This document shows, piece by piece, positions 942 through 53,040 of a stretch of 59,024 bases of DNA (position 1 is the stretch's first letter; each line of letters begins with the position of its first letter). Source of the stretch: Escherichia phage Utah; sequence record KY014601.1, one strand, 5' to 3'. The position numbers were made by a program, and so were the translations under genes. A model generated the notes under the pieces. That model made no database searches and was not told the DNA's origin. It was given only the letters and a program-made list of their open reading frames with translations.

Positions 942-3527
942 CTAAACTTCGTCTTCATCGTCAAACGGGTCTGGCTTTTTGCCGACCAGTTTTTCGACTT
1001 CTGCGTCATGCCGTTTTAACGTAGTCTGCACCCATGACGAGTTAAGTTTCCCCGCGTCATCGAATGCCCCTTTGACCCGCTTACGGACATAAACGCGGCC
1101 AGATTCGCCGCCAAATTTGACCACGCCGCCCGGCTTGAAGCCCAATTCCATAAGCATGTTTTTCAGGCGGTTCGTCTTCGGCATTTCCACGTCTGTCATT
1201 TCGAGGAATGCGTTTTTCAGGGACGGCACGAAGATGACGTCGCGGTGTACGCCCGGCGTCGTTCCGTCACGAAGCATTTGTGCGATTGCGCCTTCCACGC
1301 CATCGTCAGACGCGTCGGCCATGACCGCGAATGCTTCGGTGTCCTGCGGTGCGTGTCCTTTGGCATCGAAATCCTTTCCGATCTCCCAATCGAGGAACCA
1401 CTTTTTGATAGCAGGTGCGTGGTTTTCGATTGCCCGGTACACGTTTTTGAAGAAGCGCGCGCGTTCAGTCTTCGACCCGTAAACCCGCTCCATGTCCAGA
1501 TGATTTTCTGCCTGCGTTGACACCACCAGATAACGACGCTGGTTTTCATCGAGTGGCAATGCGTTGAAGTGGTTGGTGAACATCATTTTGCTGCTGGTGT
1601 TCACTACTTCCTTCGGCTTGCGGCCCTTTGGCTCAATCTGGAAGCGGTCGTTTGTGATGAATTCCTTCTGGCGTTCCACCGCGCTGTACCTATCGCCTTT
1701 GTCGTAGATCTCTTCCACGATTTTCAGGATGTGGCCCTCGGCCCAATCGCTGAAACGGCCATTCATCACGGTGTTTGACACATAGCCCACGTTCGACGCG
1801 CCGAGCATCCGCGACATGATGATGCCGAGCGTCGTTTTACCAGAACCATGCGCACCACGGATCAGAAGCGAGTAGTTGATGCGTTTCGTTGGGTGCTGAA
1901 TAACCCACGCCATCCAGTCCAGAACATAGCGGCGTTCCTTCTCGTTCGGGAAAAGCACGATGAAGAAGTCTTTGATGATCTCCAGCGCCTTTTTGTCGTA
2001 CGGAGAAAGGTCAGTCGCGGCCTCCGGAATGGATTCAGGGTCAAAAGAGTTCAGCCACGTACGCCCACGGTCGTCAATAAAGAATTCCGGCCCGATCACC
2101 CCCTCTTTCGGCTTCCACACAGATTCCGGCATGTCACCGTGCATCGCCGGGTAGTACATCGCGTCCCAAACGATAGGAACCGGGCGGACTACCGACGCAT
2201 AGTGGACAGGCTTGAAGGCTTCTTCCTCAAACACGCATTTTTTCGCAAAAGCGACGTCGAAAGCGCCTTTTGTGATGTAATCGCCCGTGGTTTTTTCGAT
2301 AAAACTGTCATTTGCCTTCGAGAAAACGAAGTTTTTCAGCCACTGCGGAGTCTCTTTTGACCCGTAATCGAAGCCCAAAAGCTCCCTTTTGTCACCAGCA
2401 GTGAGGCGGAAGTTGTTGATCCTGCGGTATGCTTCGGCCGCAATCTGGACGATGGCCTTGCGGGTAAGCCCGAAAATCTGCGCTTTTTTGAATGATTCGG
2501 CCCACGCATTCCAGTCATTCGCCTCGGTACACTCGGCGAAAGCCTCGCGGTACTCGATGGCGCGTTCTTCCTGCTCGGCTTTCTCGATGTCCTGCACTTC
2601 TTTGATGATGGTGCCGAGCGTGATCAGTCGAGTCGAGTTGTGCGCGAAGCCCTTATCCCACTTGTATTCGAAATCACCTTCGTCGAAGTTGTGTGCCTGC
2701 ATGGCCCATTCGCGGGCAATGGCCTTCGCCTCGTCCTGATCGCGGCAGGAAATTTGCAGCGCGGCCAGTACGGTGATGTAGTTCTCGTAATCTTCCGGGT
2801 TCGGGTATTTCAGGACGATGTCGCGCAGTTCATCGTACGTGCCGTCCCACTTTTTGACGTCAGACAGCGCGGCCCAATCGTCATCGTCTGCCGAACCGAT
2901 AGACTCATAACCGTTCATTGGCCGTTTGACCATTGTCCAGCCCAAGTCCTTCGCGTATCGGTCGAATTCGGCGGCGATCTCGCGAGCGGTATCGAGGCTG
3001 ATCTCTTCGAGGTCAAGGTCGGCGGCGTTGTTCAGCGGATTCTCGCCATCAATCCAGTAATAGTCGCGCTTGGTGTCCGGGTGGATACCGTACGCAACGA
3101 ACTGCTGGCCGTCGGCGAGGATTTCAACTGCATGGCGCTGGCCGAAGTCGTCTTCCCACACGCCGGATTTCACTTTGGCGAACGGGTTTTCGGTTCGGTA
3201 CAGGTAGAGTTTCTTCGGCTCCCGGCCGATACGACATGGCGCTGCACCGACGTTCTCGGCGATCCAGTCTGCCATGTGCGCCACGGCGTCTTCATCGTAA
3301 ACGTCGATGTCAACCGCCGGGGTGTATTTGGTCAGAATCCCGATGCCGTTATTCGTATAGCGTTTCGCCCAACGCTGGATCTGCTCCTTATCATTGATTG
3401 TTCGTTCCCAATCTTCACCGATAGGGCGTTTGCCCGCACCCTTCTTATCGGCGTCCGGGGCGTAGATAGGTACGATGGTGTACCCATTCCCCCAAAGCGT
3501 TTCGCCGTACTCTTGCCAGTAGTTCAT
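942..3527 (-). CDS. Bifunctional primase-polymerase (PrimPol N-terminus) fused to D5/SF3-type helicase
   Basis: 861 aa; N-terminal PrimPol-like region (TIVPIYAPDADKKGAGKRPIG..., VDIDVYDED acidic motif); C-terminal Walker A GAHGSGKTT; acidic tail ...DDEDEV. Confidence 0.8.
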   Translation of the reverse strand: MNYWQEYGETLWGNGYTIVPIYAPDADKKGAGKRPIGEDWERTINDKEQIQRWAKRYTNNGIGILTKYTPAVDIDVYDEDAVAHMADWIAENVGAAPCRIGREPKKLYLYRTENPFAKVKSGVWEDDFGQRHAVEILADGQQFVAYGIHPDTKRDYYWIDGENPLNNAADLDLEEISLDTAREIAAEFDRYAKDLGWTMVKRPMNGYESIGSADDDDWAALSDVKKWDGTYDELRDIVLKYPNPEDYENYITVLAALQISCRDQDEAKAIAREWAMQAHNFDEGDFEYKWDKGFAHNSTRLITLGTIIKEVQDIEKAEQEERAIEYREAFAECTEANDWNAWAESFKKAQIFGLTRKAIVQIAAEAYRRINNFRLTAGDKRELLGFDYGSKETPQWLKNFVFSKANDSFIEKTTGDYITKGAFDVAFAKKCVFEEEAFKPVHYASVVRPVPIVWDAMYYPAMHGDMPESVWKPKEGVIGPEFFIDDRGRTWLNSFDPESIPEAATDLSPYDKKALEIIKDFFIVLFPNEKERRYVLDWMAWVIQHPTKRINYSLLIRGAHGSGKTTLGIIMSRMLGASNVGYVSNTVMNGRFSDWAEGHILKIVEEIYDKGDRYSAVERQKEFITNDRFQIEPKGRKPKEVVNTSSKMMFTNHFNALPLDENQRRYLVVSTQAENHLDMERVYGSKTERARFFKNVYRAIENHAPAIKKWFLDWEIGKDFDAKGHAPQDTEAFAVMADASDDGVEGAIAQMLRDGTTPGVHRDVIFVPSLKNAFLEMTDVEMPKTNRLKNMLMELGFKPGGVVKFGGESGRVYVRKRVKGAFDDAGKLNSSWVQTTLKRHDAEVEKLVGKKPDPFDDEDEV

Positions 3528-3805
3528 TCAAGGATTTCCCCTGTTTCGCTGTCCGTTTTGATCCATGAAGGGTTAGTCAGCCAATGCGGACGGATGCCGC
3601 AGTGAGGGACAGCTTTGCAAACTTTTTCGGCCACGCTGCTCGTTACGTTGTTCTGCACGGCCCATAACAATGTCGGGTAACTGATCTTCGCTGCCTTCGC
3701 CAGTTCGGCCATTCTGGCGTTCGGGTCTACCTCCAAAGCCGCTTGCATCATGAGAAATTTGACCCGCATCCGGTCGTCGTTTAAAGCCCAATCTGGAAAT
3801 CGCAT
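3524..3805 (-). CDS. Small putative DNA-binding protein (HTH-like), first gene of leftward primase operon
   Basis: 93 aa; segment MAELAKAAKISYPTLLWAVQNN resembles an HTH; 4-bp overlap with primase-helicase start; promoter immediately upstream. Confidence 0.4.
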   Translation of the reverse strand: MRFPDWALNDDRMRVKFLMMQAALEVDPNARMAELAKAAKISYPTLLWAVQNNVTSSVAEKVCKAVPHCGIRPHWLTNPSWIKTDSETGEILE

Positions 3806-3847
3806 AGTGATGCCCTCGCGTAATGTGCGCGTGTTATAGATTTGCGG

Positions 3848-3876
3848 ATATTATATCCGGGCTTGACATCTGTCAA
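3848..3876 (-). promoter_or_regulatory. Leftward sigma70-like promoter (TTGACA-17-TAATAT) embedded in two palindromes
   Basis: Minus strand: TTGACA (3871-3876), 17-nt spacer, TAATAT (3848-3853); plus-strand palindromes GGATAT-T-ATATCC (3846-3858) and TTGACA-TC-TGTCAA (3863-3876) overlap -10 and -35. Confidence 0.55.
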
Positions 3877-3890
3877 GTTGGCCAGTTATT

Positions 3891-3941
3891 CGGGTACCAA
3901 AGGCGCTTTATGTCCGGAAAACAAAGGGCTTGCGGTACCCG
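3891..3941. promoter_or_regulatory. 8-bp inverted repeat CGGGTACC ... GGTACCCG, candidate operator in divergent control region
   Basis: CGGGTACC at 3891-3898 and GGTACCCG at 3934-3941, 35 bp apart. Confidence 0.3.
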
Positions 3942-3965
3942 AATAAAAAATTTCTAAAAAAGTGT

Positions 3966-3995
3966 TTGACAGTGATTCGGCGTTTGGGCCATACT
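3966..3995 (+). promoter_or_regulatory. Candidate rightward promoter for the long plus-strand operon
   Basis: TTGACA 3966-3971, then weak -10 CATACT about 18 nt downstream; ATG 4048 with GGAG RBS. Confidence 0.3.
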
Positions 3996-4047
3996 TCATC
4001 CCGTCAACACGACACGACCTTTTAAACACTTAACGGAGTAGAAAATT

Positions 4048-4464
4048 ATGTCTGGTATCTTCGAACAACTGCTGGCTGAACAACAAAAAACCAACACCCT
4101 GCTGGAAGGCGTTCTGGCAGCACTGAAAGGCGGCGCGGTGAACACTTCCGCTGACGCTGGTAGCGAAACTACTGAAAAAACCACCACCACCAAAGGCGGT
4201 GCTAAGGGCGGCGCGAAAGGCGGTGCAGGTAAAACCGAAACTAAAGCGGTCAAGCCTAAACACACCAAAGACGAAGTAGTCGCGGCTGTCGTTGCGGTTA
4301 AAGACGCGTTCGGCGCGCCGGAAGCCAAGAAAATCACCGCACACTTCGGCCTCGCCAAAGTCGCGGAAGCGAAGGAAGAACACTTCGACGAAATCGTCGA
4401 AATGTGTGAAGCCAAACTGGCTGAAAAAGATGAAGGCGGTAACGGCGAAGAAGACGACGTTTAA
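4048..4464 (+). CDS. Hypothetical Ala/Lys/Gly-rich protein with acidic C-terminal tail
   Basis: 138 aa; KGGAKGGAKGGAGK low-complexity segment; ends ...GNGEEDDV; good RBS. Confidence 0.5.
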   Translation: MSGIFEQLLAEQQKTNTLLEGVLAALKGGAVNTSADAGSETTEKTTTTKGGAKGGAKGGAGKTETKAVKPKHTKDEVVAAVVAVKDAFGAPEAKKITAHFGLAKVAEAKEEHFDEIVEMCEAKLAEKDEGGNGEEDDV

Positions 4465-4525: not shown

Positions 4526-4855
4526 GTGACCAGCATTACTTTCACCAACGTAGCAACATCCGGCGGCGCAGTTCTCGCGCGCACTTGGGCGGAGTTTCGT
4601 TTTCAAATCGGTGATCGCGATGTGCTGTTCAGAGTTACTTCACCTGTTTCGAAACACGAAGCGCCGCTGCTCGTAACCCATGCTGCATCGGGCTATCGAG
4701 TGTGCGACGTCTGGTGGGACGACGTGGCGAAGACTCGCTTTAACGCAGGCCGCAATAATTACAGCGGGGCAGGCGCTAGGGCATTGGTAGCGACGATTGA
4801 GCGAGTCGGCGAACACCGATTCCTCAATGCGATAAAGGCGTATCCGAATGAGTAG
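4526..4855 (+). CDS. Hypothetical protein (GTG start)
   Basis: GTG at 4526 preceded by GGAGAGG RBS; longer ATG-initiated ORF (4292) would overlap previous gene by 170 nt and span a terminator-like hairpin. Confidence 0.4.
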   Translation: MTSITFTNVATSGGAVLARTWAEFRFQIGDRDVLFRVTSPVSKHEAPLLVTHAASGYRVCDVWWDDVAKTRFNAGRNNYSGAGARALVATIERVGEHRFLNAIKAYPNE

Positions 4856-6185
4856 TAAGTCACTGTTAGTCCGCATCATGCGGGAATTCGGCGGTGGCGG
4901 CCACTCAATCTTCGCGCCTTCTGCGTCAGCGCGTTGGATCGCATGTTCTGGAAGCCTGATAGCCGGGCTTTTCGAGCATGACGAAACCATCTACGAGGCG
5001 GCGGAAGGCACGGTGGCCCACGGAATCGCCGAACAATGGCTGCGAACGGATGTCCGGCCAACCCATTTAATCGGTACGGTCGAGACGATCACGGAAGGCG
5101 GTGTCAGCCATGACATCCCCATTACTCGGTCAATGCTCGACTCGGTTCAGGAGTACGTTGACTGGTGCCGATTTGAAGAGGGTGAAATGTTCACGGAAAT
5201 CCGGGTCTGGTTTACCGACCTGATGCCGCGAGCGAACCCGGATGAACCTGACGAAGACCCGATCGAGTTTGTCGCTCAGGGCGGAACGGCGGATAATATC
5301 ATCATCCGCGACCGAACCTTGATCGTGACCGACCTGAAATACGGGACTGGCGTTCAGGTTTTCGCGGAAGGGAACCCGCAGGCGCTACTTTACGCGTACG
5401 GTGCGTACCGCGCTTTCTCGGATGAATACGAGTTTGACCGTATTGTCATCCGGATCGCGCAGCCGAGGCTCGACCATTTCGATACGTGGGAAATCACGAT
5501 TGACGAATTGTTAGAGTTCGCGGAGTATGCCCGGGAGCGAATTGCAGCGGCATGGAGCCTTACCGCGCCGCGCCGCGCATCCCTGAAAGGGTGTCGTTTT
5601 TGCCGGGCAGCACATAACTGCGCAGCGATAGCGTACATGATGGAATGCGCAGTGGGCGGGGATGTGGAATTCCTTGAAGCTGAATTCGGGGAGGAAGAAA
5701 TGTCAGTATTGCGTGATGCGCTGGCGCAGGAGTATAAATTCCGGCGTGCGCAGTTCGGGAACCTGACAACCGAGCAGATGGCGAAGATCCTGCCATACCG
5801 CAAGGTGGTCGAAAACTGGTTCTCGCGCCTTGACTTCGAACTGGAACGCCGCGCAATGAACGGCGAGAAGGTACCGGGTCAAAAGCTGGTGGAGTCGCGG
5901 ACAAACCGCAAATTCGCCAACGAGAAAGATGCGATCGCGCTGTTCAAGTTCCTCGATATCGAAGAGGACAAGTACATCGAGCGCAAACTGCGTACCCCGG
6001 CGCAGATGGAAGAAGTGCTCAGGGATGAATTGGGCGTGTCCCGGGCTGGCGCGCCGAACATCATCGCGGGGATCGTCTACAAGCCGGAAGGCAAGCCTAC
6101 ACTGGCACCGCTTACCGATAAGCGGCCACCACTGGACGGCAAGTATTCCGGGGCGTGGGACGACGAAGATGATGACGAAGTGTAA
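4848..6185 (+). CDS. PD-(D/E)XK nuclease with Cas4/RecB-like Fe-S cysteine cluster (DUF2800-like)
   Basis: 445 aa; N-terminal Cys in WIACSGS plus C-terminal CRFCRAAHNC; DxK-type motif IVTDLKYG; acidic tail ...WDDEDDDEV; position next to SSB and PolA. Confidence 0.65.
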   Translation: MSSKSLLVRIMREFGGGGHSIFAPSASARWIACSGSLIAGLFEHDETIYEAAEGTVAHGIAEQWLRTDVRPTHLIGTVETITEGGVSHDIPITRSMLDSVQEYVDWCRFEEGEMFTEIRVWFTDLMPRANPDEPDEDPIEFVAQGGTADNIIIRDRTLIVTDLKYGTGVQVFAEGNPQALLYAYGAYRAFSDEYEFDRIVIRIAQPRLDHFDTWEITIDELLEFAEYARERIAAAWSLTAPRRASLKGCRFCRAAHNCAAIAYMMECAVGGDVEFLEAEFGEEEMSVLRDALAQEYKFRRAQFGNLTTEQMAKILPYRKVVENWFSRLDFELERRAMNGEKVPGQKLVESRTNRKFANEKDAIALFKFLDIEEDKYIERKLRTPAQMEEVLRDELGVSRAGAPNIIAGIVYKPEGKPTLAPLTDKRPPLDGKYSGAWDDEDDDEV

Positions 6186-6239
6186 ACCCGTAAAACCGTA
6201 GAAAGTAAACCCGTAAAACAGTAAACCGAGGATATTAAG

Positions 6240-6836
6240 ATGGCCGAGAAATTAGTCCCTGCGAAAAAAGTCAAGAATGGCGTGCTGTACAAATCTGGTC
6301 ACATCAAGATTTCTAACGTACGTGCTTCTTACCCGCACCTCGATAAGCCGTACGGCGGTGAAGACGGCGGCGAGCCGAAATACTCGCTGACGCTTTTGAT
6401 GCCGAAAGACAGCCACGGCGAGATCGAGAAAATCATCCGTGAGCAGATCGAAGTCACCAAGAAGAACCACAAGACAGGCGCGCTGAAAGTCGCCCCGTCC
6501 ATGTTGTTCATCAAAGACGGTGATACCGATTTTCCGGATAAGCCGGAATGCGAAGGGATGTGGGTTATCTCCGCACGCGAAAGCAAACGCCCGGATGTGT
6601 ATAACATCGAGCGCGAAGAGTTGACTACCTCTTCCGAAATTCTGGAAGAGATCTACGGTGGTTGTTGGGTGTCGGTTGTCATCCGTCCGTGGTCGCAGGA
6701 AAACAAATTCGGCAAACGCGTTAACGCCAACCTGATTTCCGTTCTGAAACGCAAAGACGACGAGCCGTTCGGTGAAGGTCGTGTGGACACGTCCGACGCG
6801 TGGGATGAAGACGAAGATTGGGAAGACGAAGTGTAA
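6240..6836 (+). CDS. Single-stranded DNA-binding protein-like (phage SSB, DUF2815-like)
   Basis: 198 aa; position between nuclease and DNA polymerase; long acidic C-terminal tail ...DTSDAWDEDEDWEDEV as in SSBs. Confidence 0.5.
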   Translation: MAEKLVPAKKVKNGVLYKSGHIKISNVRASYPHLDKPYGGEDGGEPKYSLTLLMPKDSHGEIEKIIREQIEVTKKNHKTGALKVAPSMLFIKDGDTDFPDKPECEGMWVISARESKRPDVYNIEREELTTSSEILEEIYGGCWVSVVIRPWSQENKFGKRVNANLISVLKRKDDEPFGEGRVDTSDAWDEDEDWEDEV

Positions 6837-6902: not shown

Positions 6903-8942
6903 GTGACCGATTGCATTAATCTGGACTATGAATCCCGAAGCCGGGTGAACCTTAAAACGAACGGATTCGACCGATATTCGAACGACGAATCGACTAAAAT
7001 TCTGATGGGCGCATGGTCTATCAATGGCGGAGCGGTGCAGCACATCGACCTTCACCGAGGGAAGAAGTTGCCCGGCGAACTGCGTGAAGCGCTGGAAGAC
7101 CCGGCCGTCGAGAAGTGGGCCTTTAACGCGCAGTTCGAACGCGTAATGACCCGCCGGGTGCTCGGCATCAAGACGCCGTATAAATCGTGGCGCTGTACGA
7201 TGGCGCTGGCGTACATGCTCGGCTTTGCTGGCGACCTTCTGGCCGTCGGCACGCAGATCGGCTTGCCGGAAGAGAAACTGAAAGACCCGGAAGGCAAGCG
7301 CCTGATCGACCTGTTCAGCAAGCCGCAGCGTGTCACGAAGAAAAACCCGTTTGAGTGGCGCAATGAAGCGACCGACCCGGAAGACTGGTGGCACTTCTGC
7401 AAATATAACGTGCGGGACGTTGAAACCGAACTGGCGATTAAAGCCCGCCTGATGCGGTACCCGGTTCTGGATGCCGAATGGGACATGTACGCGCTGGATC
7501 AGTTCATCAACGATACAGGCGTGATGATTGACCGCGAATTCGCGTACTCGGCGCTGGCGCTCGCAGAGGCGCGCAAACCGCAGATTATCGAAGAAATGGC
7601 CGACATCACTGGCCTGAACAACCCCAATTCCCCGGCGCAGTTAACACCGTGGCTCAAAGAGCGCGGCTATCCGTTCAGCGACCTTCGCAGTGACACCGTC
7701 AACAAGGTCATTCGCGAAGCCGATGAAAACGGCGTTGACCCGGATGCGATCCGCGTGCTGCGGATGCGCCTGAATAGCGCGAAAAACTCCCTGTCAAAAT
7801 ATCAGACCATGATTGACGCGGCTGGCGAAGATGGCCGATTCCGCTTCTCGCTGCAATTCGCCGGGGCAAGCCGCACGAACCGTTGGGCTGGCCGCCGTAT
7901 TCAGACTCAAAACCTGCCGAGAACGCCGAAGCTGATCGAGGACGTGACCGACCTGTCCATCGTTAACAAGATGATCCACCAGCGCGACCTTGATGCGTTG
8001 ACGCTGTATGTGGGCGAGCCGATGGACGCGCTGGTGGGCTGCATTCGCTCCGCCTTCATCCCGACGCCGGGCCACAAGTTCATCGTTGCCGACCTGTCGT
8101 CCATCGAATCCGTGGTCATCGGGTGGCTGACAAACTGCAAATGGTTCATGGACACGCTGGCGGCCAAGCACGACCTTTACCGTTCATTCGCGGCTCACTG
8201 GCTGCACCTGCCGTACGAAGAAACGAAGCCACACCGCCCGAAAGCCAAACCTGCTACCCTCGGCGCGGGCTATCGCCTCGGCGGCGGCCACATGGACGAG
8301 AATGGCAAGAAGACCGGACTGTGGGGCTACGCCGAAAACATGGGCGTACACATGACGCAGAAAGAGGCAGAAGAGTCGGTACAGGCGTTCCGCGACCTTT
8401 GCCCGGAAATTGTGCGCGCATGGTATGACCTCGAAAACGCGGTATTCAAGGTTATCCGTACCCGTCAGGCCGTCGTATGGGGCTGTCTGATCATCGAATA
8501 CACAAAACCTTTCCTGACCATCCGTCTGCCGTCTGGCCGCAAAATGTATTACTTCCGTCCGCGTCTGGTCGAGCGCCAGATGACCGTTCAGAAAGGGCCG
8601 AAGAAGGGTGAGAAGTACACAAAGACCAACTTCCAGTACGAAGGCAAGGTGGAAGGAAGCGGCACCAAGTGGGGCAAGATTTACAGCCACGGCGGTAAGC
8701 TGGTGGAAAACATCGTTCAGGCGCTGGCGCGCGACGTGCTCGCCGAAGGTCTGAAAAAGGCGCACCGCATGGGCTTCCGGATCGTCATGCACATCCACGA
8801 TGAAATCGTAACCGAAGTGCCGGAAGACAGCCCGCTGACCGTGGACGACCTTATTTCCTGCATGGCGGCCGAACTACCGTGGGCCGAAGGGCTACCGCTT
8901 GGCGCTGCCGGGTGGGAAGGCTATTTCTACCGTAAGGATTAA
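6903..8942 (+). CDS. Family A DNA polymerase with 3'-5' exonuclease domain
   Basis: 679 aa; Exo I-like DYESRS near N-terminus; motif A-like DLSSIE; motif C HDE in MHIHDEIVTEV; GTG start. Confidence 0.85.
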   Translation: MTDCINLDYESRSRVNLKTNGFDRYSNDESTKILMGAWSINGGAVQHIDLHRGKKLPGELREALEDPAVEKWAFNAQFERVMTRRVLGIKTPYKSWRCTMALAYMLGFAGDLLAVGTQIGLPEEKLKDPEGKRLIDLFSKPQRVTKKNPFEWRNEATDPEDWWHFCKYNVRDVETELAIKARLMRYPVLDAEWDMYALDQFINDTGVMIDREFAYSALALAEARKPQIIEEMADITGLNNPNSPAQLTPWLKERGYPFSDLRSDTVNKVIREADENGVDPDAIRVLRMRLNSAKNSLSKYQTMIDAAGEDGRFRFSLQFAGASRTNRWAGRRIQTQNLPRTPKLIEDVTDLSIVNKMIHQRDLDALTLYVGEPMDALVGCIRSAFIPTPGHKFIVADLSSIESVVIGWLTNCKWFMDTLAAKHDLYRSFAAHWLHLPYEETKPHRPKAKPATLGAGYRLGGGHMDENGKKTGLWGYAENMGVHMTQKEAEESVQAFRDLCPEIVRAWYDLENAVFKVIRTRQAVVWGCLIIEYTKPFLTIRLPSGRKMYYFRPRLVERQMTVQKGPKKGEKYTKTNFQYEGKVEGSGTKWGKIYSHGGKLVENIVQALARDVLAEGLKKAHRMGFRIVMHIHDEIVTEVPEDSPLTVDDLISCMAAELPWAEGLPLGAAGWEGYFYRKD

Positions 8943-8943
8943 C

Positions 8944-9231
8944 ATGGCCGAGCCGATAATCAGAGAATCGAAGGTCGAAAAGCGCTGCTGCGAATACGCG
9001 CAGGGGCGCGGGTGGTGGGTGTCAAAATTCACCTCCCCCGGCAAAAAAGCCGTCCCGGATCGCGTGCTGATCCGTGGCGGCATTGTGCTTTTTATCGAAT
9101 TCAAACGCCCCGGCGAAGAACCAACGGCGCAGCAGTATCACCGCCACAAGGAAATGCGCAAGGCCGGGGCTAACGTGACATGGGTGGACAATTTTGCAGA
9201 CTTTAAAAACTACATTATCGCCTTTGAGTAG
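8944..9231 (+). CDS. VRR-NUC domain nuclease
   Basis: About 96 aa from ATG 8944 (MAEPIIRESKVEK...); conserved E/K pattern IVLFIEFKRPGEEPTAQQ typical of VRR-NUC. Confidence 0.6.
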   Translation: MAEPIIRESKVEKRCCEYAQGRGWWVSKFTSPGKKAVPDRVLIRGGIVLFIEFKRPGEEPTAQQYHRHKEMRKAGANVTWVDNFADFKNYIIAFE

Positions 9232-10753
9232 AGCGCTCGCGTACTGCCTGCGGACGGTTAAACTGAACCGCAGCGACATGCACGACTATCAGGACGAAGG
9301 CGTCCAGTTCATCAAAGACCATCCGTACTGCGGCATGTTCGTAGACCTCGGCTTGGGTAAGACTGTCATGACCGGGACGGCCATGCTCGACCTGATCGCG
9401 GACGGCGAAATCAACAAAGTCCTCGTCGTCGCGCCGAAGCGCGTGGCCCGTACCGGGTGGCCGACGGAATTCGACGAGTGGGGCCACCTGTGTTTCTACA
9501 AGATGTCGGTCATCGCCGGGAACGCCAAAGAGCGCGCAGCGGCCGCGAGTAAGGACTGCCATTTTTACACGATCAGCGTGGATAACATTGCGTGGCTGTG
9601 TGAGCACTTCAAGACGAAATGGCCGTTCGACGCCGTGGTGCTGGACGAGTCGAGCATGTTCAAATCCCACACCTCGCAGCGCTTCAAACTGCTGCGCCGG
9701 GTGCGGAAGTACATCAAACGGATCGTCGAGTTGACGGCCACGCCTGCGGCCGAAGGGTACATGGGTATCTTCTCGCAAATTTACCTGCTGGACGAAGGCG
9801 AGCGCTTTGGCTCCACCATCGGCGGTTATCAGGAAAACTACTTCACGCAGAACCGCTACAACTTCAAATGGAAACTTCGCCCCGGTGCGGAAGACGAGAT
9901 TATTCGGAAGATTTCTGATATATGTTTAGTCATGAAAGCGGAAGACTACCTTGACATGCACGAACCGAATTTCGTTCCTGTCCCGGTCGAGTTAGACGGG
10001 GAGACGGCGGAGCGGTACCGCATGATGGAGGAAGAGAGCCTCGTCGAGATTATGCCGGACGATTTCGATGAACATCTGGATGACCCAATCGTGATCGAAG
10101 CGGAGCAGGCCGCGTCTTTGCAGTCGAAGTTATTGCAGATGTGCTCAGGCTTCATCTACGACACGAAAATCGTTGGCATAACGCAAGACGACAAGGTCAT
10201 TAAGCAGAAGGACACGTACAGGCTGCACGACCTGAAATTCGATGCACTGGAAGAACTGCTGGAAACCACGCTGGCCGATAAAAACGTGCTGATCGCCTAT
10301 CACTTCAAGCCGACCCTCGAACGACTGAAAGAGCGGTTTAAAGATCTGGTGGTCATGGATGATGACGGTAAGTGCATCAAGAAGTGGAACGCCGGAAAGA
10401 TTCGACTGCTGGCCGCGCACCCTCAGTCAGCGGGACACGGTTTAAACCTCCAGCATGGGGGCCACGTCATCGTCTACATCGACAATCCGTGGTCGCTCGA
10501 ACGCTTCCTGCAATTCAACGGCAGACTTCACCGTCAGGGCCAGAAGTACCCGGTTACTATCTACCAGTTCAAAGCCATGCTGCGAACACCGAACGGGCTT
10601 CTGGCCGAGACAGCGGACGACGTCGTGATTCAGGCGCTGAACGACAAAGAGGACGTGCAGGACGCGTTCTTCGAACTGCTCGAACGCATCAAAGGGCGCA
10701 TCAAACGCCGCAAGAAATCGAAAAATAAAGGGGTATGGGATGACGAAGAGTAA
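9194..10753 (+). CDS. SNF2-family (SF2) ATP-dependent helicase
   Basis: Motif I DLGLGKT, motif II VVLDESSMFK, C-terminal helicase motifs HPQSAGHGLNLQ and NGRLHRQGQ; start ambiguous (ATG 9194 overlaps VRR-NUC; alternative ATG 9278). Confidence 0.8.
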   Translation: MQTLKTTLSPLSRALAYCLRTVKLNRSDMHDYQDEGVQFIKDHPYCGMFVDLGLGKTVMTGTAMLDLIADGEINKVLVVAPKRVARTGWPTEFDEWGHLCFYKMSVIAGNAKERAAAASKDCHFYTISVDNIAWLCEHFKTKWPFDAVVLDESSMFKSHTSQRFKLLRRVRKYIKRIVELTATPAAEGYMGIFSQIYLLDEGERFGSTIGGYQENYFTQNRYNFKWKLRPGAEDEIIRKISDICLVMKAEDYLDMHEPNFVPVPVELDGETAERYRMMEEESLVEIMPDDFDEHLDDPIVIEAEQAASLQSKLLQMCSGFIYDTKIVGITQDDKVIKQKDTYRLHDLKFDALEELLETTLADKNVLIAYHFKPTLERLKERFKDLVVMDDDGKCIKKWNAGKIRLLAAHPQSAGHGLNLQHGGHVIVYIDNPWSLERFLQFNGRLHRQGQKYPVTIYQFKAMLRTPNGLLAETADDVVIQALNDKEDVQDAFFELLERIKGRIKRRKKSKNKGVWDDEE

Positions 10754-11309
10754 TGCGCCACTGGCAACCCGGAATCGCCGCTCTAATGCGCCGGACGCCG
10801 ATACCGAAGCGATGATCTTTCAGGGCTGCAACATCACGCAACTGGCGAAGCTGTTTCGCATGGAGCGCCGGGACATCACGCCGAAAATCATGGATGTCCC
10901 GCCTGTCGGCGAGCGTGGCGGGTACCCGATCTACGCGGTTCACGAAGTGGCCCCGTACCTCGTTAAGCCGCTGTACGATGTCGAGACGTACCTGCGCCGC
11001 ATGAATTTCAAGGATCTGCCGAAGGAGTTGTCGAAAGAGTTTTGGGCCGGGCAGCGTGCAAAGCAGGACTTCGACATCAAAGCGGGAAACCTGTGGGAAA
11101 CCGAGAAGGTGATCGAGCACTTCGGCGAGGCGGTGAAGGTGCTGCGCATGTCGATGTTGCTCATTCCCGACACGCTGGCGCGTCAGGCCGGACTCAGCGA
11201 GCCGCAACGTCAGGTCATCACGTCATCCATTGACGCCATGCTGAACGACCTGTCGAGCGCGCTGATCGATAAGTTCAACGGCGACGAGGTGGATGACGAT
11301 GAAGTTTAA
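10740..11309 (+). CDS. Terminase small subunit (Nu1-like) with acidic C-terminus
   Basis: Immediately upstream of and overlapping TerL; HTH-like N-region ITQLAKLFRMERRDITPKI resembling lambda Nu1 N-terminus; ends ...DEVDDDEV; possible alternative start at 10812. Confidence 0.55.
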   Translation: MTKSNAPLATRNRRSNAPDADTEAMIFQGCNITQLAKLFRMERRDITPKIMDVPPVGERGGYPIYAVHEVAPYLVKPLYDVETYLRRMNFKDLPKELSKEFWAGQRAKQDFDIKAGNLWETEKVIEHFGEAVKVLRMSMLLIPDTLARQAGLSEPQRQVITSSIDAMLNDLSSALIDKFNGDEVDDDEV

Positions 11310-13374
11310 GAGCATCGGGCAGATTATCAGTTCGGTGGCCGAGCAGTTACGTCCGCCAATGCGCATGACGGTGGCCGACGCGGCCGCCAAGTATCGCTAC
11401 GTCAACCAACCCGGCGCATACGTCGGGGATTGGCTTAACTCGACGACGCCGTACATGGTCGAGCCGATGAACATGATGAACAGCCGGGCGTACGACAAGA
11501 TGGCCTTTGTCGGCCCGGCGCAGTCCGGTAAAACCGATGCGCTGATCCTGAATAGCATTGTCTATTCGGTGAAAGTTGACCCGATGGATCTGATGGTCTA
11601 CTGCCCGACGTCAACGGCCGCGCGCGACTTCTCGATGCGACGTGTAGACCGTCTTCACCGCCATAGCCCGAAGGTGGGCGAAATGCTGATGAAGAACCGC
11701 GACGCCGACAACAAATTCGACAAACACTACGTCACAGGCATCATCCTGACGTTGAGTTATCCGTCAGTAACCGAACTGGCCGGGCGTCCCGTTGGTCGCA
11801 TCATCATCACCGACTACGACCGTATTGACGACGACATCGGCGGCGACGGTAACGCCTTCGACCTCGCATCAAAACGTACGACGACCTTCGGGTCGTTTGC
11901 CATGTGTGCAGCCGAGTCATCGCCATCGCGCCCGATTAAAGACCCAAGCTGGATTAAGCGCACGCCCCACGAAGCCCCGCCGTGTGACGGGATTGTCGGC
12001 CTGTACAACCGTGGCGACCGCCGCCGCTGGAAATGGCCGTGTCCGCATTGCGACCAGTATTTCGAAGGTACCTTCCAGCTTTTGAAGTGGAACACGAAAG
12101 ACGCCGATGGCAACCCTCTAACCAACCTCGAAAAGTCGGAGACAGTGCGCATGGCCTGTCCACACTGCGGCTGCGAAATAGACCCGGTTGATAAGTATGA
12201 AATGAACCTGTGGGGGATGTGGGTGCCGGAAGGCTGTCATGTCAACGAGTTGGGCCAACTGGCCGGGGTACCGATGCGCTCGTCGTTCGCGTCCTTCTGG
12301 CTTCGCGGAACGGCGGCCGCATTCATCACATGGCAGAAACTGGTTCTGAACTACCTCGATGCGATGGATGACTACGAGCGTACGATGTCCGAAGAGTCCT
12401 TGAAGAAATTCTGGAACAACGACATGGGCGAACCGTACGTGCCGAAGGCGATCGAGACGGTACGCGTTCCGGAAGCGCTGAAAGCCCGCGCCGAGAAGTG
12501 GCCGGAACAGACGGTGCCGAAGAATGTGCGGTTCTTGGCGGCCACGGTGGACGTGCAGAAGCATAGCTTTGAAGTGTCGGTGCATGGTGTGGCCCCCGGC
12601 TACCCGTTCGACACCTATCTGATCGACCGCTTCAACATCACGAAATCGCGCCGACTCGATGACGATGGCGACCCGAAAATCCTGCACCCGGGCGCGTACC
12701 TCGAAGATTGGGATCTCATTGAAACCGAAGTGATGAACAAGACGTATCCGCTGTCCGATAATTCGGGCCGTTCGCTGCCGATCAAGATGACCGCGTGCGA
12801 CTCCGGTGGTGAAGCCGGGGTAACGGGCAACGCGTACGAATTCTTCCGGAAACTGCGGAAGGAAGGGAAAACCGGGCGCTTCTGTCTGGTGAAGGGCGAC
12901 CCGAAAGCGAACAACCCGCGCACCCGTGTAGCGCTACCGGACTCCAACCAGAAAGACAAGAAAGCCATCGCACGCGGCGACGTTCCGGTGCTGATGATTA
13001 ACTCGAACGTGATGAAAGACAGCCTGAACGGCCGACTGGACGTCGTGGAGCCGGGCAAAGGCATGTACCACATCCCGGACTGGATGGGCGACGCGGTATT
13101 CGCCGAACTGTGTACGGAGACGCGTGACGAGAAAGGCTGGCACAACCCATCCCACGCCCGAAACGAAACGTGGGACTTGGCATATTATTTATTGGGAATT
13201 TGCGTCAGTGGCCGCGTGCTCGGGATTGAGCAGATAGATTGGGATAACCCGCCATCATGGGCGGCCGAGTGGGACGATAACAGCATGGTTATTTTACCGC
13301 AGAGCGATGAACCTATTGATGCACCGAAAGATACCGAATACAGTTTCGAGAAACTCGCAATGGCGTTAGCATAG
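11293..13374 (+). CDS. Terminase large subunit (lambda gpA-like)
   Basis: 693 aa; Walker A-like GPAQSGKT; lambda gpA-like C-terminal segment NETWDLAYYLLG; gene order TerS-TerL-W-portal. Confidence 0.85.
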   Translation: MTMKFKSIGQIISSVAEQLRPPMRMTVADAAAKYRYVNQPGAYVGDWLNSTTPYMVEPMNMMNSRAYDKMAFVGPAQSGKTDALILNSIVYSVKVDPMDLMVYCPTSTAARDFSMRRVDRLHRHSPKVGEMLMKNRDADNKFDKHYVTGIILTLSYPSVTELAGRPVGRIIITDYDRIDDDIGGDGNAFDLASKRTTTFGSFAMCAAESSPSRPIKDPSWIKRTPHEAPPCDGIVGLYNRGDRRRWKWPCPHCDQYFEGTFQLLKWNTKDADGNPLTNLEKSETVRMACPHCGCEIDPVDKYEMNLWGMWVPEGCHVNELGQLAGVPMRSSFASFWLRGTAAAFITWQKLVLNYLDAMDDYERTMSEESLKKFWNNDMGEPYVPKAIETVRVPEALKARAEKWPEQTVPKNVRFLAATVDVQKHSFEVSVHGVAPGYPFDTYLIDRFNITKSRRLDDDGDPKILHPGAYLEDWDLIETEVMNKTYPLSDNSGRSLPIKMTACDSGGEAGVTGNAYEFFRKLRKEGKTGRFCLVKGDPKANNPRTRVALPDSNQKDKKAIARGDVPVLMINSNVMKDSLNGRLDVVEPGKGMYHIPDWMGDAVFAELCTETRDEKGWHNPSHARNETWDLAYYLLGICVSGRVLGIEQIDWDNPPSWAAEWDDNSMVILPQSDEPIDAPKDTEYSFEKLAMALA

Positions 13375-18200: not shown

Positions 18201-18494
18201 ATGCCAAAACGTAAAGTTCTCCAGACCGTCATCGTTTACCGCGACGGCGCGCGTATCAAACCGTCCATCGGCGAGATCTTCGATTTCAAACAAGCCGAAC
18301 TGGACAGCATCAACAAAATCAACCCGGATGCCATCGGCCGCCCGGTGATGGAAGTTGACATGGAAAATCAGGCAGCGCAGGAAGCCGCAGCGCAGCAGGC
18401 GAAAGCTGAAACGTCCAAAAAAGACGAGAAGGCTGACGGTGCTAAGAAAAACGCCAAAGACGATAAAAAGTCTGGCGCGGAAGACGAAGTCTAA
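18201..18494 (+). CDS. Hypothetical head-associated protein with Lys-rich region and acidic C-terminus (FI position)
   Basis: 97 aa; ends ...KKSGAEDEV; location equals lambda FI slot. Confidence 0.45.
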   Translation: MPKRKVLQTVIVYRDGARIKPSIGEIFDFKQAELDSINKINPDAIGRPVMEVDMENQAAQEAAAQQAKAETSKKDEKADGAKKNAKDDKKSGAEDEV

Positions 18495-44467: not shown

Positions 44468-44474
44468 ACGGTTT

Positions 44475-46531: not shown

Positions 46532-47218
46532 TTAAATCTCGTCCCACATCTTGATCCAGCGGTTCCGGATCTTGGCCGATACGTTAGCCAGTGGTGCGCC
46601 GATTTCCAGTAGCGTTTCACGGTCGATATACTCGTTGGGGAAGATGCGGTCAGTCGCCGGGTCGAAGATGTGGATGGCTGCGCCGAACCCGGCCGACGTG
46701 ATTTCGCTGCTGCCTTCCTTCGGCCGGAACCAGACTGGCGGTTCGAACCCGATGCGCCCTTTGATGAAGATGGTGCGCGTGGCGATAGCGTCCGGCCACC
46801 AGCTTTCCGACGTCGCCGCTTTGGTCAGCCAGATGGTGCCAGCGCCTTTTGCCCGTTCCTCGTCGGCCTTGCGCATGATGTGGGTCATCCCGGTAAGCGG
46901 TTCTTTCCCGGCGCGCTTCTGACTGTACGGCGGGTTAGCGTAGGCCCAAACTCGGGTCTTGGCGTCGAATTCGTCGCTGGCGTGGATCTCGGCCAGACGC
47001 TTCGCCCAATCCTGCCGCAGCGCGTTATCTTCGGCCGTAAAGAATCGCTCGCATTTGGCGTTCTGGCCGTCGGTGAACAGGTCGAGCACGATTGGCCCGT
47101 ACAGCTTGTTAATCGCTTGGAACAGCCACTCCGGCGTACGCCATTGGTCGCCTATCCACTTCGGTTCATGCTCGTCTAAACCTTTCAGCGCGTTCAGCGC
47201 ATCAACGTACTGACTCAT
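46532..47218 (-). CDS. DNA N6-adenine methyltransferase (phage Dam-type)
   Basis: 228 aa; N-terminal WRTPEWLF motif and catalytic ANPPY motif IV characteristic of phage N6-adenine MTases. Confidence 0.7.
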   Translation of the reverse strand: MSQYVDALNALKGLDEHEPKWIGDQWRTPEWLFQAINKLYGPIVLDLFTDGQNAKCERFFTAEDNALRQDWAKRLAEIHASDEFDAKTRVWAYANPPYSQKRAGKEPLTGMTHIMRKADEERAKGAGTIWLTKAATSESWWPDAIATRTIFIKGRIGFEPPVWFRPKEGSSEITSAGFGAAIHIFDPATDRIFPNEYIDRETLLEIGAPLANVSAKIRNRWIKMWDEI

Positions 47219-49921: not shown

Positions 49922-50197
49922 TCATATGTCGGGGTTACTGTAAATAAGATTCCAGTATTTGTACTCCTTCAAGTCCAGTTCGATGACGCATGGGTCATCC
50001 AGCGCGCTCAGGCAGGTGCCGTAGTCCTCGACAAAGACGCAGGAGGATTCCGGGTGATGCAGCAGTCGCACCCGTCGGTAGTTCAGGTGCCATTCCGGAC
50101 TGAACACATGGTTCTCCGGCTGGCGTATCAGCATGATCTGGCCTGTCGTTCTGACCTGCCAGTATTGGTCTACTTGGGGCGTGGCATAGGCTCCCAT
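49922..50197 (-). CDS. Hypothetical protein
   Basis: Start placed at internal ATG 50197 (RBS AAGGAG) rather than 50329 to avoid 128-nt overlap with upstream gene. Confidence 0.4.
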   Translation of the reverse strand: MGAYATPQVDQYWQVRTTGQIMLIRQPENHVFSPEWHLNYRRVRLLHHPESSCVFVEDYGTCLSALDDPCVIELDLKEYKYWNLIYSNPDI

Positions 50198-50201
50198 TTC
50201 G

Positions 50202-50435
50202 TTACTCCTTTTTGTCCGCTCTGTCCCGGTAAACGCGGGTACCCATCTTCCCGTAGATCTGGTCTTGCAACGTGAACCGGATGGACAGGCGGATGTTAAG
50301 CCGATAGCCCATTCGACGCAGATAGCCAAGATCCTGCGGCTTCACGCCTTCGATAAAGAACGAATCGCCGTCCTTCATCCCGAGCAGAAGTTTTTCGTGA
50401 GTTTCACGCACGCTTTTGTCGGTAGTCGCGGCCAT
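50202..50435 (-). CDS. Hypothetical protein
   Basis: 77 aa; immediately downstream of RdgC-like gene. Confidence 0.45.
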   Translation of the reverse strand: MAATTDKSVRETHEKLLLGMKDGDSFFIEGVKPQDLGYLRRMGYRLNIRLSIRFTLQDQIYGKMGTRVYRDRADKKE

Positions 50436-50437
50436 TG

Positions 50438-51526
50438 TTAAACCTCGTCGTCGTCTTCTTCGTCGTCTTCTTCGTCGTTCAGCGTTCCGGTGTACTCGAC
50501 TACCTGCCCGGCCTCGTCCAGCACGCTGATCACCGCACGCAGGGACTTATCGAGTTGGAACAGGTTAGCCATCATGGTCAGGAACTGGCCGCCGTCGGTG
50601 CCGTAGCGTTCGAGCGTGGCGTCGTAGTTCGCATCAACGTCGGCCTCGCCGATGTGGATACCGGACAGGATGGCTTTGTCGGACAGGCGGAAGTACACGG
50701 TGTCGATGCCCGGGCATTGCGTATCGACTTCGAGATCCAGCGCGCGGACAGTCCAGTGACGTGACAGCAGGTCAACCACCGACTCGTCTTTGAAGATGTC
50801 CGTGTCCTTCATCTTGACGTCGTCGCCATCGTCGTGTTTCAGGTGGATAAACGCATCGCCCTTGATGCCGTCCTGCTGGCCGAGAACCGCGCGCTGCATT
50901 AACTGGCGCAGCTCATACTCGCTCGGCAGGAGGTGTTCGACGGGCCATGTGCCGAGCGCGGTACGGATCAGCGCGCTGCACTCTTCTGCCGTCTTCGCGC
51001 TCGACGTGAACACGTACACGAACGGGGCGGACAGGATGACGTTGACGCGGGAAGGGCGGATAGGCGCGTGTTTCAGCATTTCCGCTTCCACGTCGTCCTT
51101 CATCTGCGCCCAATCCTTGCGGTTCGGCTCCCAACCCTCGATCTCTTTCTCCCGCAACGCGGCCATGCGCTTCACGACTTCATTTCGTACGCTGACGCCG
51201 GGCAACACACGTTCGCGTTTCTCGATCTGGAAGACGATGGCGTTTGTCCCGGGGATGGCGAGGGCGAATTTGCTGTCAACCTCTTCGCCGTACGCTGCAA
51301 AGCCCATTGTCTTGTAAGACGCCTCCGGCGGATCTGACACTTCATGCTTTTCGAGTGCATCGCTTAACGCTCCTTTAGCGAAAGACGTCACCGCCTCTTC
51401 GTCAACGTTCGGCAGATTCAGGATCAGGCGGTGCAGCGGCTTGACCTTCTCGTTACCGTCGTTGGCCGCGTCATACAGCGCGCCGAGGTGCAGGATAATG
51501 GCTTTCTCATAACCCTTGATTTTCAT
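50438..51526 (-). CDS. RdgC-like recombination-associated protein with long acidic C-terminal tail
   Basis: 362 aa; region SALIRTALGTWPVEHLLPSE resembles E. coli RdgC (LALLRKSLGSLPVVPLS); ends ...NDEEDDEEDDDEV. Confidence 0.55.
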   Translation of the reverse strand: MKIKGYEKAIILHLGALYDAANDGNEKVKPLHRLILNLPNVDEEAVTSFAKGALSDALEKHEVSDPPEASYKTMGFAAYGEEVDSKFALAIPGTNAIVFQIEKRERVLPGVSVRNEVVKRMAALREKEIEGWEPNRKDWAQMKDDVEAEMLKHAPIRPSRVNVILSAPFVYVFTSSAKTAEECSALIRTALGTWPVEHLLPSEYELRQLMQRAVLGQQDGIKGDAFIHLKHDDGDDVKMKDTDIFKDESVVDLLSRHWTVRALDLEVDTQCPGIDTVYFRLSDKAILSGIHIGEADVDANYDATLERYGTDGGQFLTMMANLFQLDKSLRAVISVLDEAGQVVEYTGTLNDEEDDEEDDDEV

Positions 51527-51869
51527 TCTCTATGGCTCCCAAGTTGATTAGATTGGCTGGTGCTCCGTGGTACATGGATTGCGCTGCATGGAACATCGCG
51601 GCGCGTAGTGCTTCTTTGGCCGCCCGAAGGCCCGCCATTGATTCAGCGTACTGGTCGCTGACCGTGTTATACGCCGCCTCGTCGTTGTCCAGCGTGGCGA
51701 GGTCGAGCATTTTGGTACTATGGGCCTGCACGTCGTCTTCCATGTCCTTGAAAAACGTCTCAAGGGCAGACAGTTTGCAGGTGATTTGGTCTAACCGGAC
51801 TTTGCGCAGTTCTTGGTACTGCACGCGAACGAATTCAATGCCTTCCACCAGCCACCTCCACGACGACAT
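51507..51869 (-). CDS. Hypothetical protein
   Basis: 120 aa. Confidence 0.45.
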   Translation of the reverse strand: MSSWRWLVEGIEFVRVQYQELRKVRLDQITCKLSALETFFKDMEDDVQAHSTKMLDLATLDNDEAAYNTVSDQYAESMAGLRAAKEALRAAMFHAAQSMYHGAPANLINLGAIENENQGL

Positions 51870-52170
51870 TCTGCACTTCCGGGCATGGCATATTCGTCAT
51901 GGCCCAATCCAGAAACTTCACGATGTACATGCGCATGGCCGCACATTCGTCCGCGCCACGGGCCTTGCCGTGCTTCGCGATGGCCGGGTCGCCGGACTGA
52001 TAGAAGGTCACGCGGTGATTCGTGGCCGACGACACCTTGATCCCGGTGTGCGTGGCATGGATGGTCACGCTGTAGATCCGCTCGATAGCGCGGAACGCCG
52101 GGACGACGTCGATGCGGCCTTTCGGGTGAATAGCGTTGTTCACCATCAACGCGGTATTAGTCGGCTGCAT
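51835..52170 (-). CDS. Hypothetical protein
   Basis: 111 aa. Confidence 0.45.
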   Translation of the reverse strand: MQPTNTALMVNNAIHPKGRIDVVPAFRAIERIYSVTIHATHTGIKVSSATNHRVTFYQSGDPAIAKHGKARGADECAAMRMYIVKFLDWAMTNMPCPEVQNVVVEVAGGRH

Positions 52171-52597
52171 TGAGCGGATCCTCTTTCAGACGGTAGGTGA
52201 TGGTGTCCGGGCGAGTCGCGTCGATTTCCAGTTCAGGCATCTGCCCGGTGATCAGGCGGGACGGCGTAAGAACTGCGGTGCGCAGGCCGTTCTCGAACAT
52301 GATGTTGGCCGCCGTGACCAGCGAAATACTTTCGATGTGGTCTTGGGTCTGGTCGAGGCGGCGCTGTAACAGTTCGACCTTCTCGGCGTTCTCGTCCGGA
52401 ATGTCGAAGGCAGACCGCAATCCGGCGATCAATGCGATGGCGTCCGCGCGGGTCAGGGGGGTGGCGATCTCGGTGTCACCGTTGTCCTTCTCGATGTAGA
52501 TCTCGCCCTCTTTTTGGCCGGGCTTCTTATAGATAAAGGCCGTACGGGCAATGTCTCGTACCGGACTCAGTTCAATAGGGTGGTGCGTTGTTTTCAT
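52157..52597 (-). CDS. Hypothetical protein
   Basis: 146 aa. Confidence 0.45.
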   Translation of the reverse strand: MKTTHHPIELSPVRDIARTAFIYKKPGQKEGEIYIEKDNGDTEIATPLTRADAIALIAGLRSAFDIPDENAEKVELLQRRLDQTQDHIESISLVTAANIMFENGLRTAVLTPSRLITGQMPELEIDATRPDTITYRLKEDPLNAAD

Positions 52598-52668
52598 CGG
52601 TGTGCGTCCTATAGGGTGTCAGGTCAAAAGGGTGGTACGCCATTTTTCAGGCGTGCCGTCCTACGTTT

Positions 52669-53040
52669 TTAAACTTCGTCGTCGTCCGCGACGTCGGTGG
52701 CCGTACAGGTTACGACGGCCTGAATGAACATGCGGCCAGACGGGTAAGTCACCAGTGCGGATTCCATACTGAACCGTTGGCCGTGGTGTTTCATGGCGTT
52801 CCGGATGGAAGAATTAAGGCTGGCCCGCATCTTCGCTTTGAGGGCATTGGCCTCGTCCTGTACCTGCGAAAGCGTACGGTCAAGCGGGAGTTCTTGGGAC
52901 AGGGTGTACACGCCACCGACTTCCAGCGCAATGAGGTTCCCCACGACGCTGTACACGCGCACGCGTGACGGCAGTTCAACATCCGGCTCGGTCGTCATCA
53001 TTGCGCCAGTCAGTTCGGCCGGGCTTAGTTCTTTGCTCAT
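52669..53040 (-). CDS. Hypothetical early protein with acidic C-terminus, first gene of leftward unit 1
   Basis: 123 aa; ends ...TDVADDDEV; promoter 53083-53111 upstream. Confidence 0.5.
   Translation of the reverse strand: MSKELSPAELTGAMMTTEPDVELPSRVRVYSVVGNLIALEVGGVYTLSQELPLDRTLSQVQDEANALKAKMRASLNSSIRNAMKHHGQRFSMESALVTYPSGRMFIQAVVTCTATDVADDDEV

Follow-up and report, generated by a model that had tools for sequence, protein, structure and literature searches.

Why should proteins of quite different function, encoded in one phage genome, end in the same few residues? The question is raised by the genome of Escherichia phage Utah (KY014601.1; 59,024 nucleotides, analyzed over its whole length and called the window hereafter), in which eight unrelated proteins carry a C-terminal tail made of an acidic run closed by Val. 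The window is a complete or nearly complete chi-like phage genome of 59 kb (Chivirus, family Casjensviridae) that shares 99.6% identity over 10 kb with phages NSP, SeWh-1 and KFS-SE1. Its protein set (n = 68) was obtained by transfer of the annotated genes of phage YSD1, and the tail-bearing genes correspond to annotated YSD1 coding sequences. A preliminary description of this DNA had quoted nine such C termini, the eight that end in Val and an acidic variant on an SNF2 helicase (...VWDDEE), and all nine were confirmed in sequence and position.

C termini of the form [DE][DE]V occur on 8 of the 68 proteins, and all eight extend to [DE]3V. The frequency of internal [DE][DE]V tripeptides predicts 0.11 such ends (Poisson p ~5e-13), and composition-preserving resampling predicts 0.08, with a maximum of 2 in 20,000 trials. 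The motif accounts for eight of the nine window proteins that end in Val. That it is shared beyond chance, as the preliminary description had held, is thus borne out by eight observed cases against about 0.1 expected. Nor is it equally frequent in unrelated phages, which would have spoken against a special signal. Distantly related phage contigs, linked to the window by nothing more than a related polymerase module, encode 1013 unique proteins; of these, a single one ends in [DE]3 followed by Val, Ile, Leu, Met or Phe, and 21 have the looser [DE]2 form; the motif is therefore about 100 times rarer there. In T7, 2 of 51 proteins are tailed, gp2.5 (...ADEDGDF) and gp4 (...SNDTDF), both of the Phe type, and none of the 11 proteins of the lambda head module from Nu1 to U, including FI, has such a tail despite a similar gene layout.

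The carriers, including two with variant or short tails, and the DNA polymerase encoded among them are as follows.

942-3527, minus strand: PrimPol/DUF5906 (D5-like) primase-helicase; tail ...PFDDEDEV encoded at 945-968, followed by the stop codon at 942-944 and a terminator-like hairpin
4048-4464, plus strand: hyp4, 138 residues, phrog_7721; tail ...GEEDDV at 4444-4461
4848-6185, plus strand: DUF2800 PD-(D/E)XK (Cas4-like) exonuclease; tail ...WDDEDDDEV at 6156-6182
6240-6836, plus strand: gp2.5-like SSB (single-stranded DNA-binding protein; Pfam Enc34_ssDNA-bd/DUF2815); tail ...WDEDEDWEDEV at 6801-6833
6903-8942, plus strand: family A DNA polymerase (PolA); no tail, ends in ...GWEGYFYRKD; isoelectric point (pI) 8.2
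9278-10753, plus strand: SNF2 helicase; variant tail ...VWDDEE at 10736-10750, without an aliphatic cap
10740-11309, plus strand: small terminase TerS (DUF1441); tail ...DEVDDDEV at 11283-11306
18201-18494, plus strand: DUF7443 protein of the head region; tail ...AEDEV at 18477-18491
46532-47218, minus strand: Dam-type N6-adenine DNA methyltransferase; short tail ...KMWDEI, with WDEI at 46535-46546
50438-51526, minus strand: RdgC-like recombination-associated protein; tail NDEEDDEEDDDEV (...EEDDDEV) at 50441-50479
52669-53040, minus strand: DUF7609 protein; tail ...ADDDEV at 52672-52689

All eight Val-tailed genes and the SNF2 helicase gene have strong PHROG hits, and all of these except hyp4 have Pfam hits. 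The Pfam domains stop 2 to 45 residues short of the carriers' C termini, placing the tails beyond the folded domains. Every tailed protein of known function acts on DNA (primase-helicase, nuclease, SSB, SNF2 translocase, RdgC, Dam methylase and TerS), and no phage-tail, lysis or capsid-shell protein of the window has the motif. The variant ends on the SNF2 helicase and the methyltransferase have regular counterparts in relatives: SNF2 orthologs end in ...EEDDEI in Ile lineages and ...DDDDL in Leu lineages, and methyltransferase orthologs in ...WEDL and ...FDDL. The 46532-47218 product matches Pfam Dam (PF05869, E = 2.9e-30); its YSD1 label, phosphoadenosine phosphosulfate (PAPS) reductase, is probably wrong, judging from this match. 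The DUF7443 gene lies directly 3' of the gpE-like major capsid gene, the position of FI in lambda; the DUF7443 protein shares gene position only with lambda FI and has no similarity to it in sequence. The positional equivalent of hyp4 is tailed in almost every lineage examined, and hyp4 is therefore likely to be a DNA-associated factor.

Selection on the tails acts on the peptide. The terminal Val is encoded by GTT, GTG, GTA and GTC, with synonymous differences even inside single ortholog families, the Asp and Glu codons vary too, and TAA, TGA and TAG all serve as stop codons. Intergenic DNA or terminators lie 3' of five or six of the eight Val tails, most with a spacer of 50 to 70 nucleotides or a terminator-like hairpin. 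The free variation of Val and stop codons, together with these noncoding flanks, shows that the constraint is on the protein.

Across the Casjensviridae, an acidic run and a C-terminal aliphatic residue are found on the same orthologous families, and the identity of that last residue depends on the clade. We compared replication and packaging modules as well as whole genomes across the family and metagenomic lineages; genes in metagenomic loci were called with a simple codon-usage caller, which recovered 64 of the 68 window reference genes, and families in distant lineages were assigned by BLAST and gene position. Val is used in Chivirus, Redjacvirus, the Klebsiella group and Enc34. Of the 41 distinct tail 8-mers in this clade, 38 have it as their last residue; the acidic run differs in length and in the order of Asp and Glu and is much less conserved than the end. 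The [DE][DE]I ending is found on nine proteins of Aeromonas phage pAEv1812 (Sharonstreetvirus): the primase, hyp4, nuclease, SSB, SNF2, TerS, head-region protein, RdgC and an exoribonuclease-like protein. Base-composition drift was rejected as the cause of the change from Val to Ile, because this genome has 61% GC and Ile is rarer than Val across its proteome. Pseudomonas phage UF_RH7 has D[DG]L ends on six module proteins, and Leu is also used by Burkholderia phage AH2, by the metagenomic lineages L021, L022 and L024 and by many other metagenomic lineages. Jacunavirus tails end in Phe and Ile, and Lavrentievavirus and Kokobelvirus show a looser mix of Met, Leu, Ile and Phe on fewer proteins. 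The divergence of TerS follows the same course: among 107 clusters, all full-length members at 72% identity or more end in Val, save P0025/L095 (72%), which ends in Ile; those at 55 to 64% identity mostly end in Ile, and those below 55% mostly in Leu.

The change of the last residue is concerted. When terminal residues were shuffled within families for nine representative lineages, the observed uniformity within genomes was never reached (p < 1e-5), and collapsing the five Leu lineages to one left the result unchanged. For 61 distinct lineages, the two tails of a pair match in 503 of 616 comparisons within genomes, whereas permutations gave 190 on average and never more than 238; 35 of the lineages are pure (14 Val, 13 Leu and 8 Ile). 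We also chose three new lineages solely by their TerS tail and read the other genes afterwards. L095, whose TerS ends in ...DEEI, has Ile on 6 of 6 proteins, including the primase, hyp4, nuclease, SSB and head-region protein; L097 has Ile on 4 of 4; and L096 is mixed, with one Leu and one Ile. As the same last residue is kept, and switched together, on unrelated folds, one shared reader of the C terminus is the simplest explanation.

We therefore favor the reading that the tails are short linear docking motifs for one phage-encoded receptor, probably the DNA-binding groove of the SSB, and put its probability at roughly 0.55. We hold more tentatively, at somewhat less than even odds, to its fuller form: a C-terminal address code private to the Casjensviridae, with one reader, probably the groove of the SSB for single-stranded DNA (ssDNA), whose ligands and receptor co-evolve as a Val, Ile or Leu set.

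The leading candidate for the receptor is the ssDNA-binding groove of the SSB. The SSB (PF10991, E = 7.7e-31; PDB 5ODJ, E = 1.4e-117) is found in nearly all lineages that have the tail code, and is an ortholog, at about 88% identity, of Enc34 ORF6 from an Enterobacter/Hafnia phage (PDB 5ODJ, 5ODK and 5ODL). The C terminus of ORF6 is WDEDEV, as read from the cloning primer (PMC5686142). Its tail is disordered and acidic and sets ssDNA specificity: in the crystals, C termini sit in the concave beta-sheet of neighboring molecules, burying 842 Å2, a contact that T7 gp2.5 and another two DUF2815 structures likewise show, and ORF6 without its tail gains binding to double-stranded DNA (dsDNA; PMC5686142). 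In T7 gp2.5, the tail and ssDNA are competitors for one surface (reference 14 of PMC5686142). The Enc34 study treats the tail as an ordinary SSB feature and does not report the same tail on other phage proteins (PMC5686142). In an AlphaFold2 model of the full window SSB, confidence drops in the tail, which reaches a predicted local distance difference test score (pLDDT) of 59 to 65, with a helix at residues 185 to 194, which is suggestive only.

In the docking reading, each tail consists of a disordered acidic run and one aliphatic residue with a free carboxylate, appended past the folded domain of the primase-helicase, Cas4-like exonuclease, SSB, SNF2 helicase, RdgC, Dam methylase, TerS, the protein in the FI position and two proteins of unknown function. 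All of these tails would be received by the same basic pocket of one receptor encoded by the phage, and a shift in the preference of that pocket would pull every tail along, giving Val in Chivirus, Ile in Sharonstreetvirus and Leu elsewhere. With the DNA-binding groove of the gp2.5-like SSB as the pocket, the tail could act as an ssDNA mimic whose last side chain stands in for a stacked base. We infer that the tailed enzymes might then be concentrated on the SSB, be handed ssDNA by it or evict it locally, and that replication, recombination, methylation and packaging might be tied to SSB-marked DNA by a code distinct from the DDDIPF tip of the host.

Several observations weigh against this reading. 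In the crystal of Enc34 ORF6, the final 11 residues, the DEV end among them, are disordered (PMC5686142), so that recognition of the terminal residue by the SSB is not visible. When the SSB tail was fused to PolA through a 25-residue Gly/Ser linker (53-sequence alignment), its pLDDT was 21 to 26 against 59 to 65 on the SSB, but this AlphaFold2 comparison is confounded by alignment depth, which the tail had in the SSB job and lacked in the fusion. A search of 11 to 18 aligned families for receptor columns fixed and different between Val, Ile and Leu lineages gave nothing convincing; scattered columns track the code (SSB N122D, TerL V642I with Phe, Leu or Tyr in Leu lineages, and polymerase I631V), and no protein stands out. 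TerS and the head-region protein would also have to dock onto the SSB, for which we have no direct precedent to cite. In addition, 26 of the 61 lineages are mixed, mostly Leu plus Ile or Met on hyp4 or the polymerase, indicating that the code tolerates similar aliphatic residues, and the permutation p-values overstate independence because the lineages are related. Lastly, two tails overlap translation signals: the TerS tail codons contain the ribosome-binding site of TerL, GAGGTG (11286-11291), and ATG starts (11293 and 11299), and the final RdgC codons, GAG GTT, lie 6 nucleotides before the next ATG and may double as its ribosome-binding site. The preliminary description had spoken of a docking code for one hub protein: the shared code is strongly supported, being conserved and switched in concert on up to nine proteins; of the hub candidates it had named, the SSB OB fold is the best supported, indirectly.

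The alternative that survives best, though we consider it unlikely, dispenses with a common receptor: the acidic, DNA-mimicking tail of each DNA-binding protein would shield that protein's own surface, for autoinhibition, solubility or discrimination between ssDNA and dsDNA. The gain of dsDNA binding by tail-less ORF6 and the competition between tail and ssDNA on gp2.5 fit this idea, as does the fact that nearly all carriers of known function bind DNA, and some tails, such as ...WDDEE of SNF2, lack the aliphatic cap. Independent shields would nevertheless not fix one last residue, make it far more conserved than the acidic run or switch it together on six to nine proteins per genome. Shielding may also coexist with docking instead of replacing it.

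Next, and rather doubtful, is a wiring of the T7 type, in which the phage DNA polymerase would offer basic patches as docking sites for the tails. In T7, the acidic tails of gp2.5 and gp4, with their terminal Phe, bind a basic patch of gp5, and those two are exactly the tails that T7 has; PDB 6P7E contains a DTDF peptide (PMC12339929). The likeness is close: there as here, a disordered acidic run with one hydrophobic C-terminal residue is found on the SSB and the primase-helicase (both ...EDEV in the window), the SSBs belong to the same structural family with a gp2.5-like OB fold, and the gp2.5 tail both competes with ssDNA and mediates protein contacts. PolA is moreover the sole large replication protein of the window without a tail, and it is basic, whereas all carriers are acidic. 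In contrast to the two Phe-capped carriers of T7 and their known receptor, the basic patches of polymerase-thioredoxin, there are 8 to 10 carriers per genome here, including nuclease, SNF2, RdgC, methylase, TerS and head-region proteins, the cap is an aliphatic residue that varies by clade (Val, Ile or Leu), and the polymerase is probably not the common receptor. A polymerase hub would leave the tails on TerS and the head-region protein unexplained, and no polymerase alignment column convincingly tracks the code. Docking on the polymerase, another option in the preliminary description, was not seen in the AlphaFold2 fusion either, where PolA itself had a pLDDT of 90.7 and the tail stayed at 21 to 26, a weak test given the tail's lack of alignment depth.

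In many relatives, Burkholderia phage AH2 among them, the place of PolA between the SSB and SNF2 genes is taken by another polymerase, phrog_1252, whose family B hits fall below threshold. Examples are the following genes.

L093, 6270-8321: phrog_1252 polymerase
L150, 4289-6481: phrog_1252 polymerase
L156, 5194-7494: phrog_1252 polymerase
L168, 5637-7742: phrog_1252 polymerase

Within a single phage family, one polymerase seems to have been replaced by another. The phrog_1252 protein ends in a Cys-x2-Cys element followed by an acidic tail of its own (...DDDGEDI, ...VDEDDL, ...KEDSL or ...EEDDDDD; strongly acidic in 13 of 24 distinct sequences), and its lineages keep the code on hyp4, the SSB, SNF2, TerS and the head-region protein. 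Because the replacement polymerases carry the tail themselves, the polymerase is unlikely to be the universal reader. In L021, the PolA gene is split into open reading frames at 7737-9368 and 10106-10924 by an insert of about 740 nucleotides, possibly a mobile element or an intein-like insertion.

Less probable again is a receptor in the host, for instance the pockets that read the bacterial SSB tip or another hub, which the phage would hijack or block. The tails resemble that tip in architecture, with an aromatic residue, an acidic run and a hydrophobic C terminus, and the code classes roughly correlate with host groups. The E. coli SSB ends in DFDDDIPF, and its tip is likewise a short peptide that serves as a general docking code for DNA metabolism. 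However, bacterial SSBs present one tail to many reader pockets, whereas many tails are found here, implying few receptors, and these end in [DE]3 plus Val, Ile or Leu, without the Pro-Phe of the bacterial consensus D-D-D-[IL]-P-F. The host factor proposed among the hubs in the preliminary description loses ground mainly because two Providencia phages, Stilesk (Val) and Kokobel1 (Met/Phe), differ in code, while the single Val code spans at least four host genera (phages of Salmonella, Klebsiella, Hafnia and Providencia). The Val-code phage L014 has in addition a separate protein with the exact host tip: its homolog (4533-4907, plus strand) of window hyp5 (4526-4855) ends in ...NEWDDDIPF, identical to the bacterial SSB tip, which suggests that phage and host codes are kept apart. 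From its sequence, the L014 protein may imitate the SSB tail of the host; window hyp5 itself ends in ...KAYPNE. Similar ends, ...DSDIPF and ...DFDIPF, are found on the products of L028 17990-18382 and L030 1-1017 (minus strand).

It is very improbable that the tails are a shared signal for stability or degradation, whether as a C-terminal degron or as a cap against C-terminal proteolysis. A protease tag would look like a C-terminal signal shared by many proteins, and acidic C-terminal residues reportedly protect against Tsp- and ClpX-type recognition, as is said of the 1990 work of Parsell, Silber and Sauer and of ssrA-DD controls. Known bacterial C-degrons are, to our knowledge, non-polar (LAA-like) or basic, not poly-acidic, and every one of the eight window tails has Asp or Glu at positions -2 to -4. 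Protection would need no clade-specific aliphatic last residue, and the SSB tail of homologs has an established binding role. The degradation or targeting signal offered earlier as an alternative to docking is thus poorly compatible with the data.

The weakest alternative, that the tails are a nucleotide-level by-product of purine-rich gene ends serving as ribosome-binding sites, of overlapping starts or of terminator flanks, fits the overlaps at TerS and RdgC but was rejected as a general cause and can practically be set aside, since the remaining tails precede spacers of 50 to 70 nucleotides or terminators, codons and stops vary while the peptide stays, and the Ile and Leu clades follow the same peptide logic with other DNA.

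Docking of many proteins through an acidic C terminus also has eukaryotic analogies. The EEVD ends of Hsp70 and Hsp90 are read by TPR-clamp co-chaperones, TPR clamps being readers of acidic C termini in eukaryotic chaperones, and class III PDZ ligands have the form [DE]-x-hydrophobic-COOH. By analogy, the phage system may likewise couple an acidic C-terminal peptide with a free carboxylate, on several proteins, to one type of receptor domain, although EEVD ends in Asp and the tails here in Val, Ile or Leu. Pfam scans of 20 of the 68 proteins (early-region and tail-bearing) revealed no TPR, PDZ or other peptide-reading domain. A 30-residue helix pair of PolA (residues 487 to 517; window 8362-8454) has a weak phmmer match to a designed consensus TPR (E = 1.6e-4 to 2.9e-4); no single stretch passes alone, and the match is probably due to chance.

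Acidic SSB tails are textbook knowledge. In the searchable literature, with most subscription journals outside its scope, we found no prior description of a tail code on several proteins, and the sharing of one tail by up to ten unrelated proteins, with a last residue that switches on all of them together throughout a phage family, appears to be new to it. If one receptor reads the code, the tails would provide a testable wiring diagram for fork progression, recombination, DNA modification and terminase loading, and would represent a natural case in which one pocket and its many ligands co-evolve. Peptide and pocket together could be adapted for orthogonal tagging or targeted so as to block phage replication, and the C-terminal signature could help to predict DNA-associated function for hyp4, DUF7443 and DUF7609.

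Other C termini of these phages have features of their own. In L023, the protein at the hyp4 position (3247-3618) has a C-terminal run of at least 14 consecutive Asp, and the SSB (5311-5967) ends in 12 Asp followed by Glu-Val. TerL (window 11293-13374) and its orthologs, down to about 50% identity, have a conserved non-acidic C terminus, [FLM][AG]xxLA (for example ...LAMALA, ...FAEALA and ...LGKALA), which is kept in all lineages and may be a second C-terminal recognition element.

Short repeats were also noted in the window. A direct repeat, AACCCGTAAAAC, occurs twice, 23 nucleotides apart, at 6185-6220 (plus strand) within the spacer that separates the nuclease gene from the SSB gene. An identical 22-nucleotide repeat, CCGGATTTTCGGGGAACGCCGC, at 56238-56259 and 58485-58506 (plus strand), directly follows the stops of two small genes that end at 56231 and 58482. 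The 12-mer GTTTGACATACG is present twice on the minus strand, at 44469 and 46524, directly 3' of the stop codons of the ThyX-like and methyltransferase genes; with a TATAAT-like box after each copy, the two resemble repeated sigma-70-type promoters that would serve the next genes to the left.

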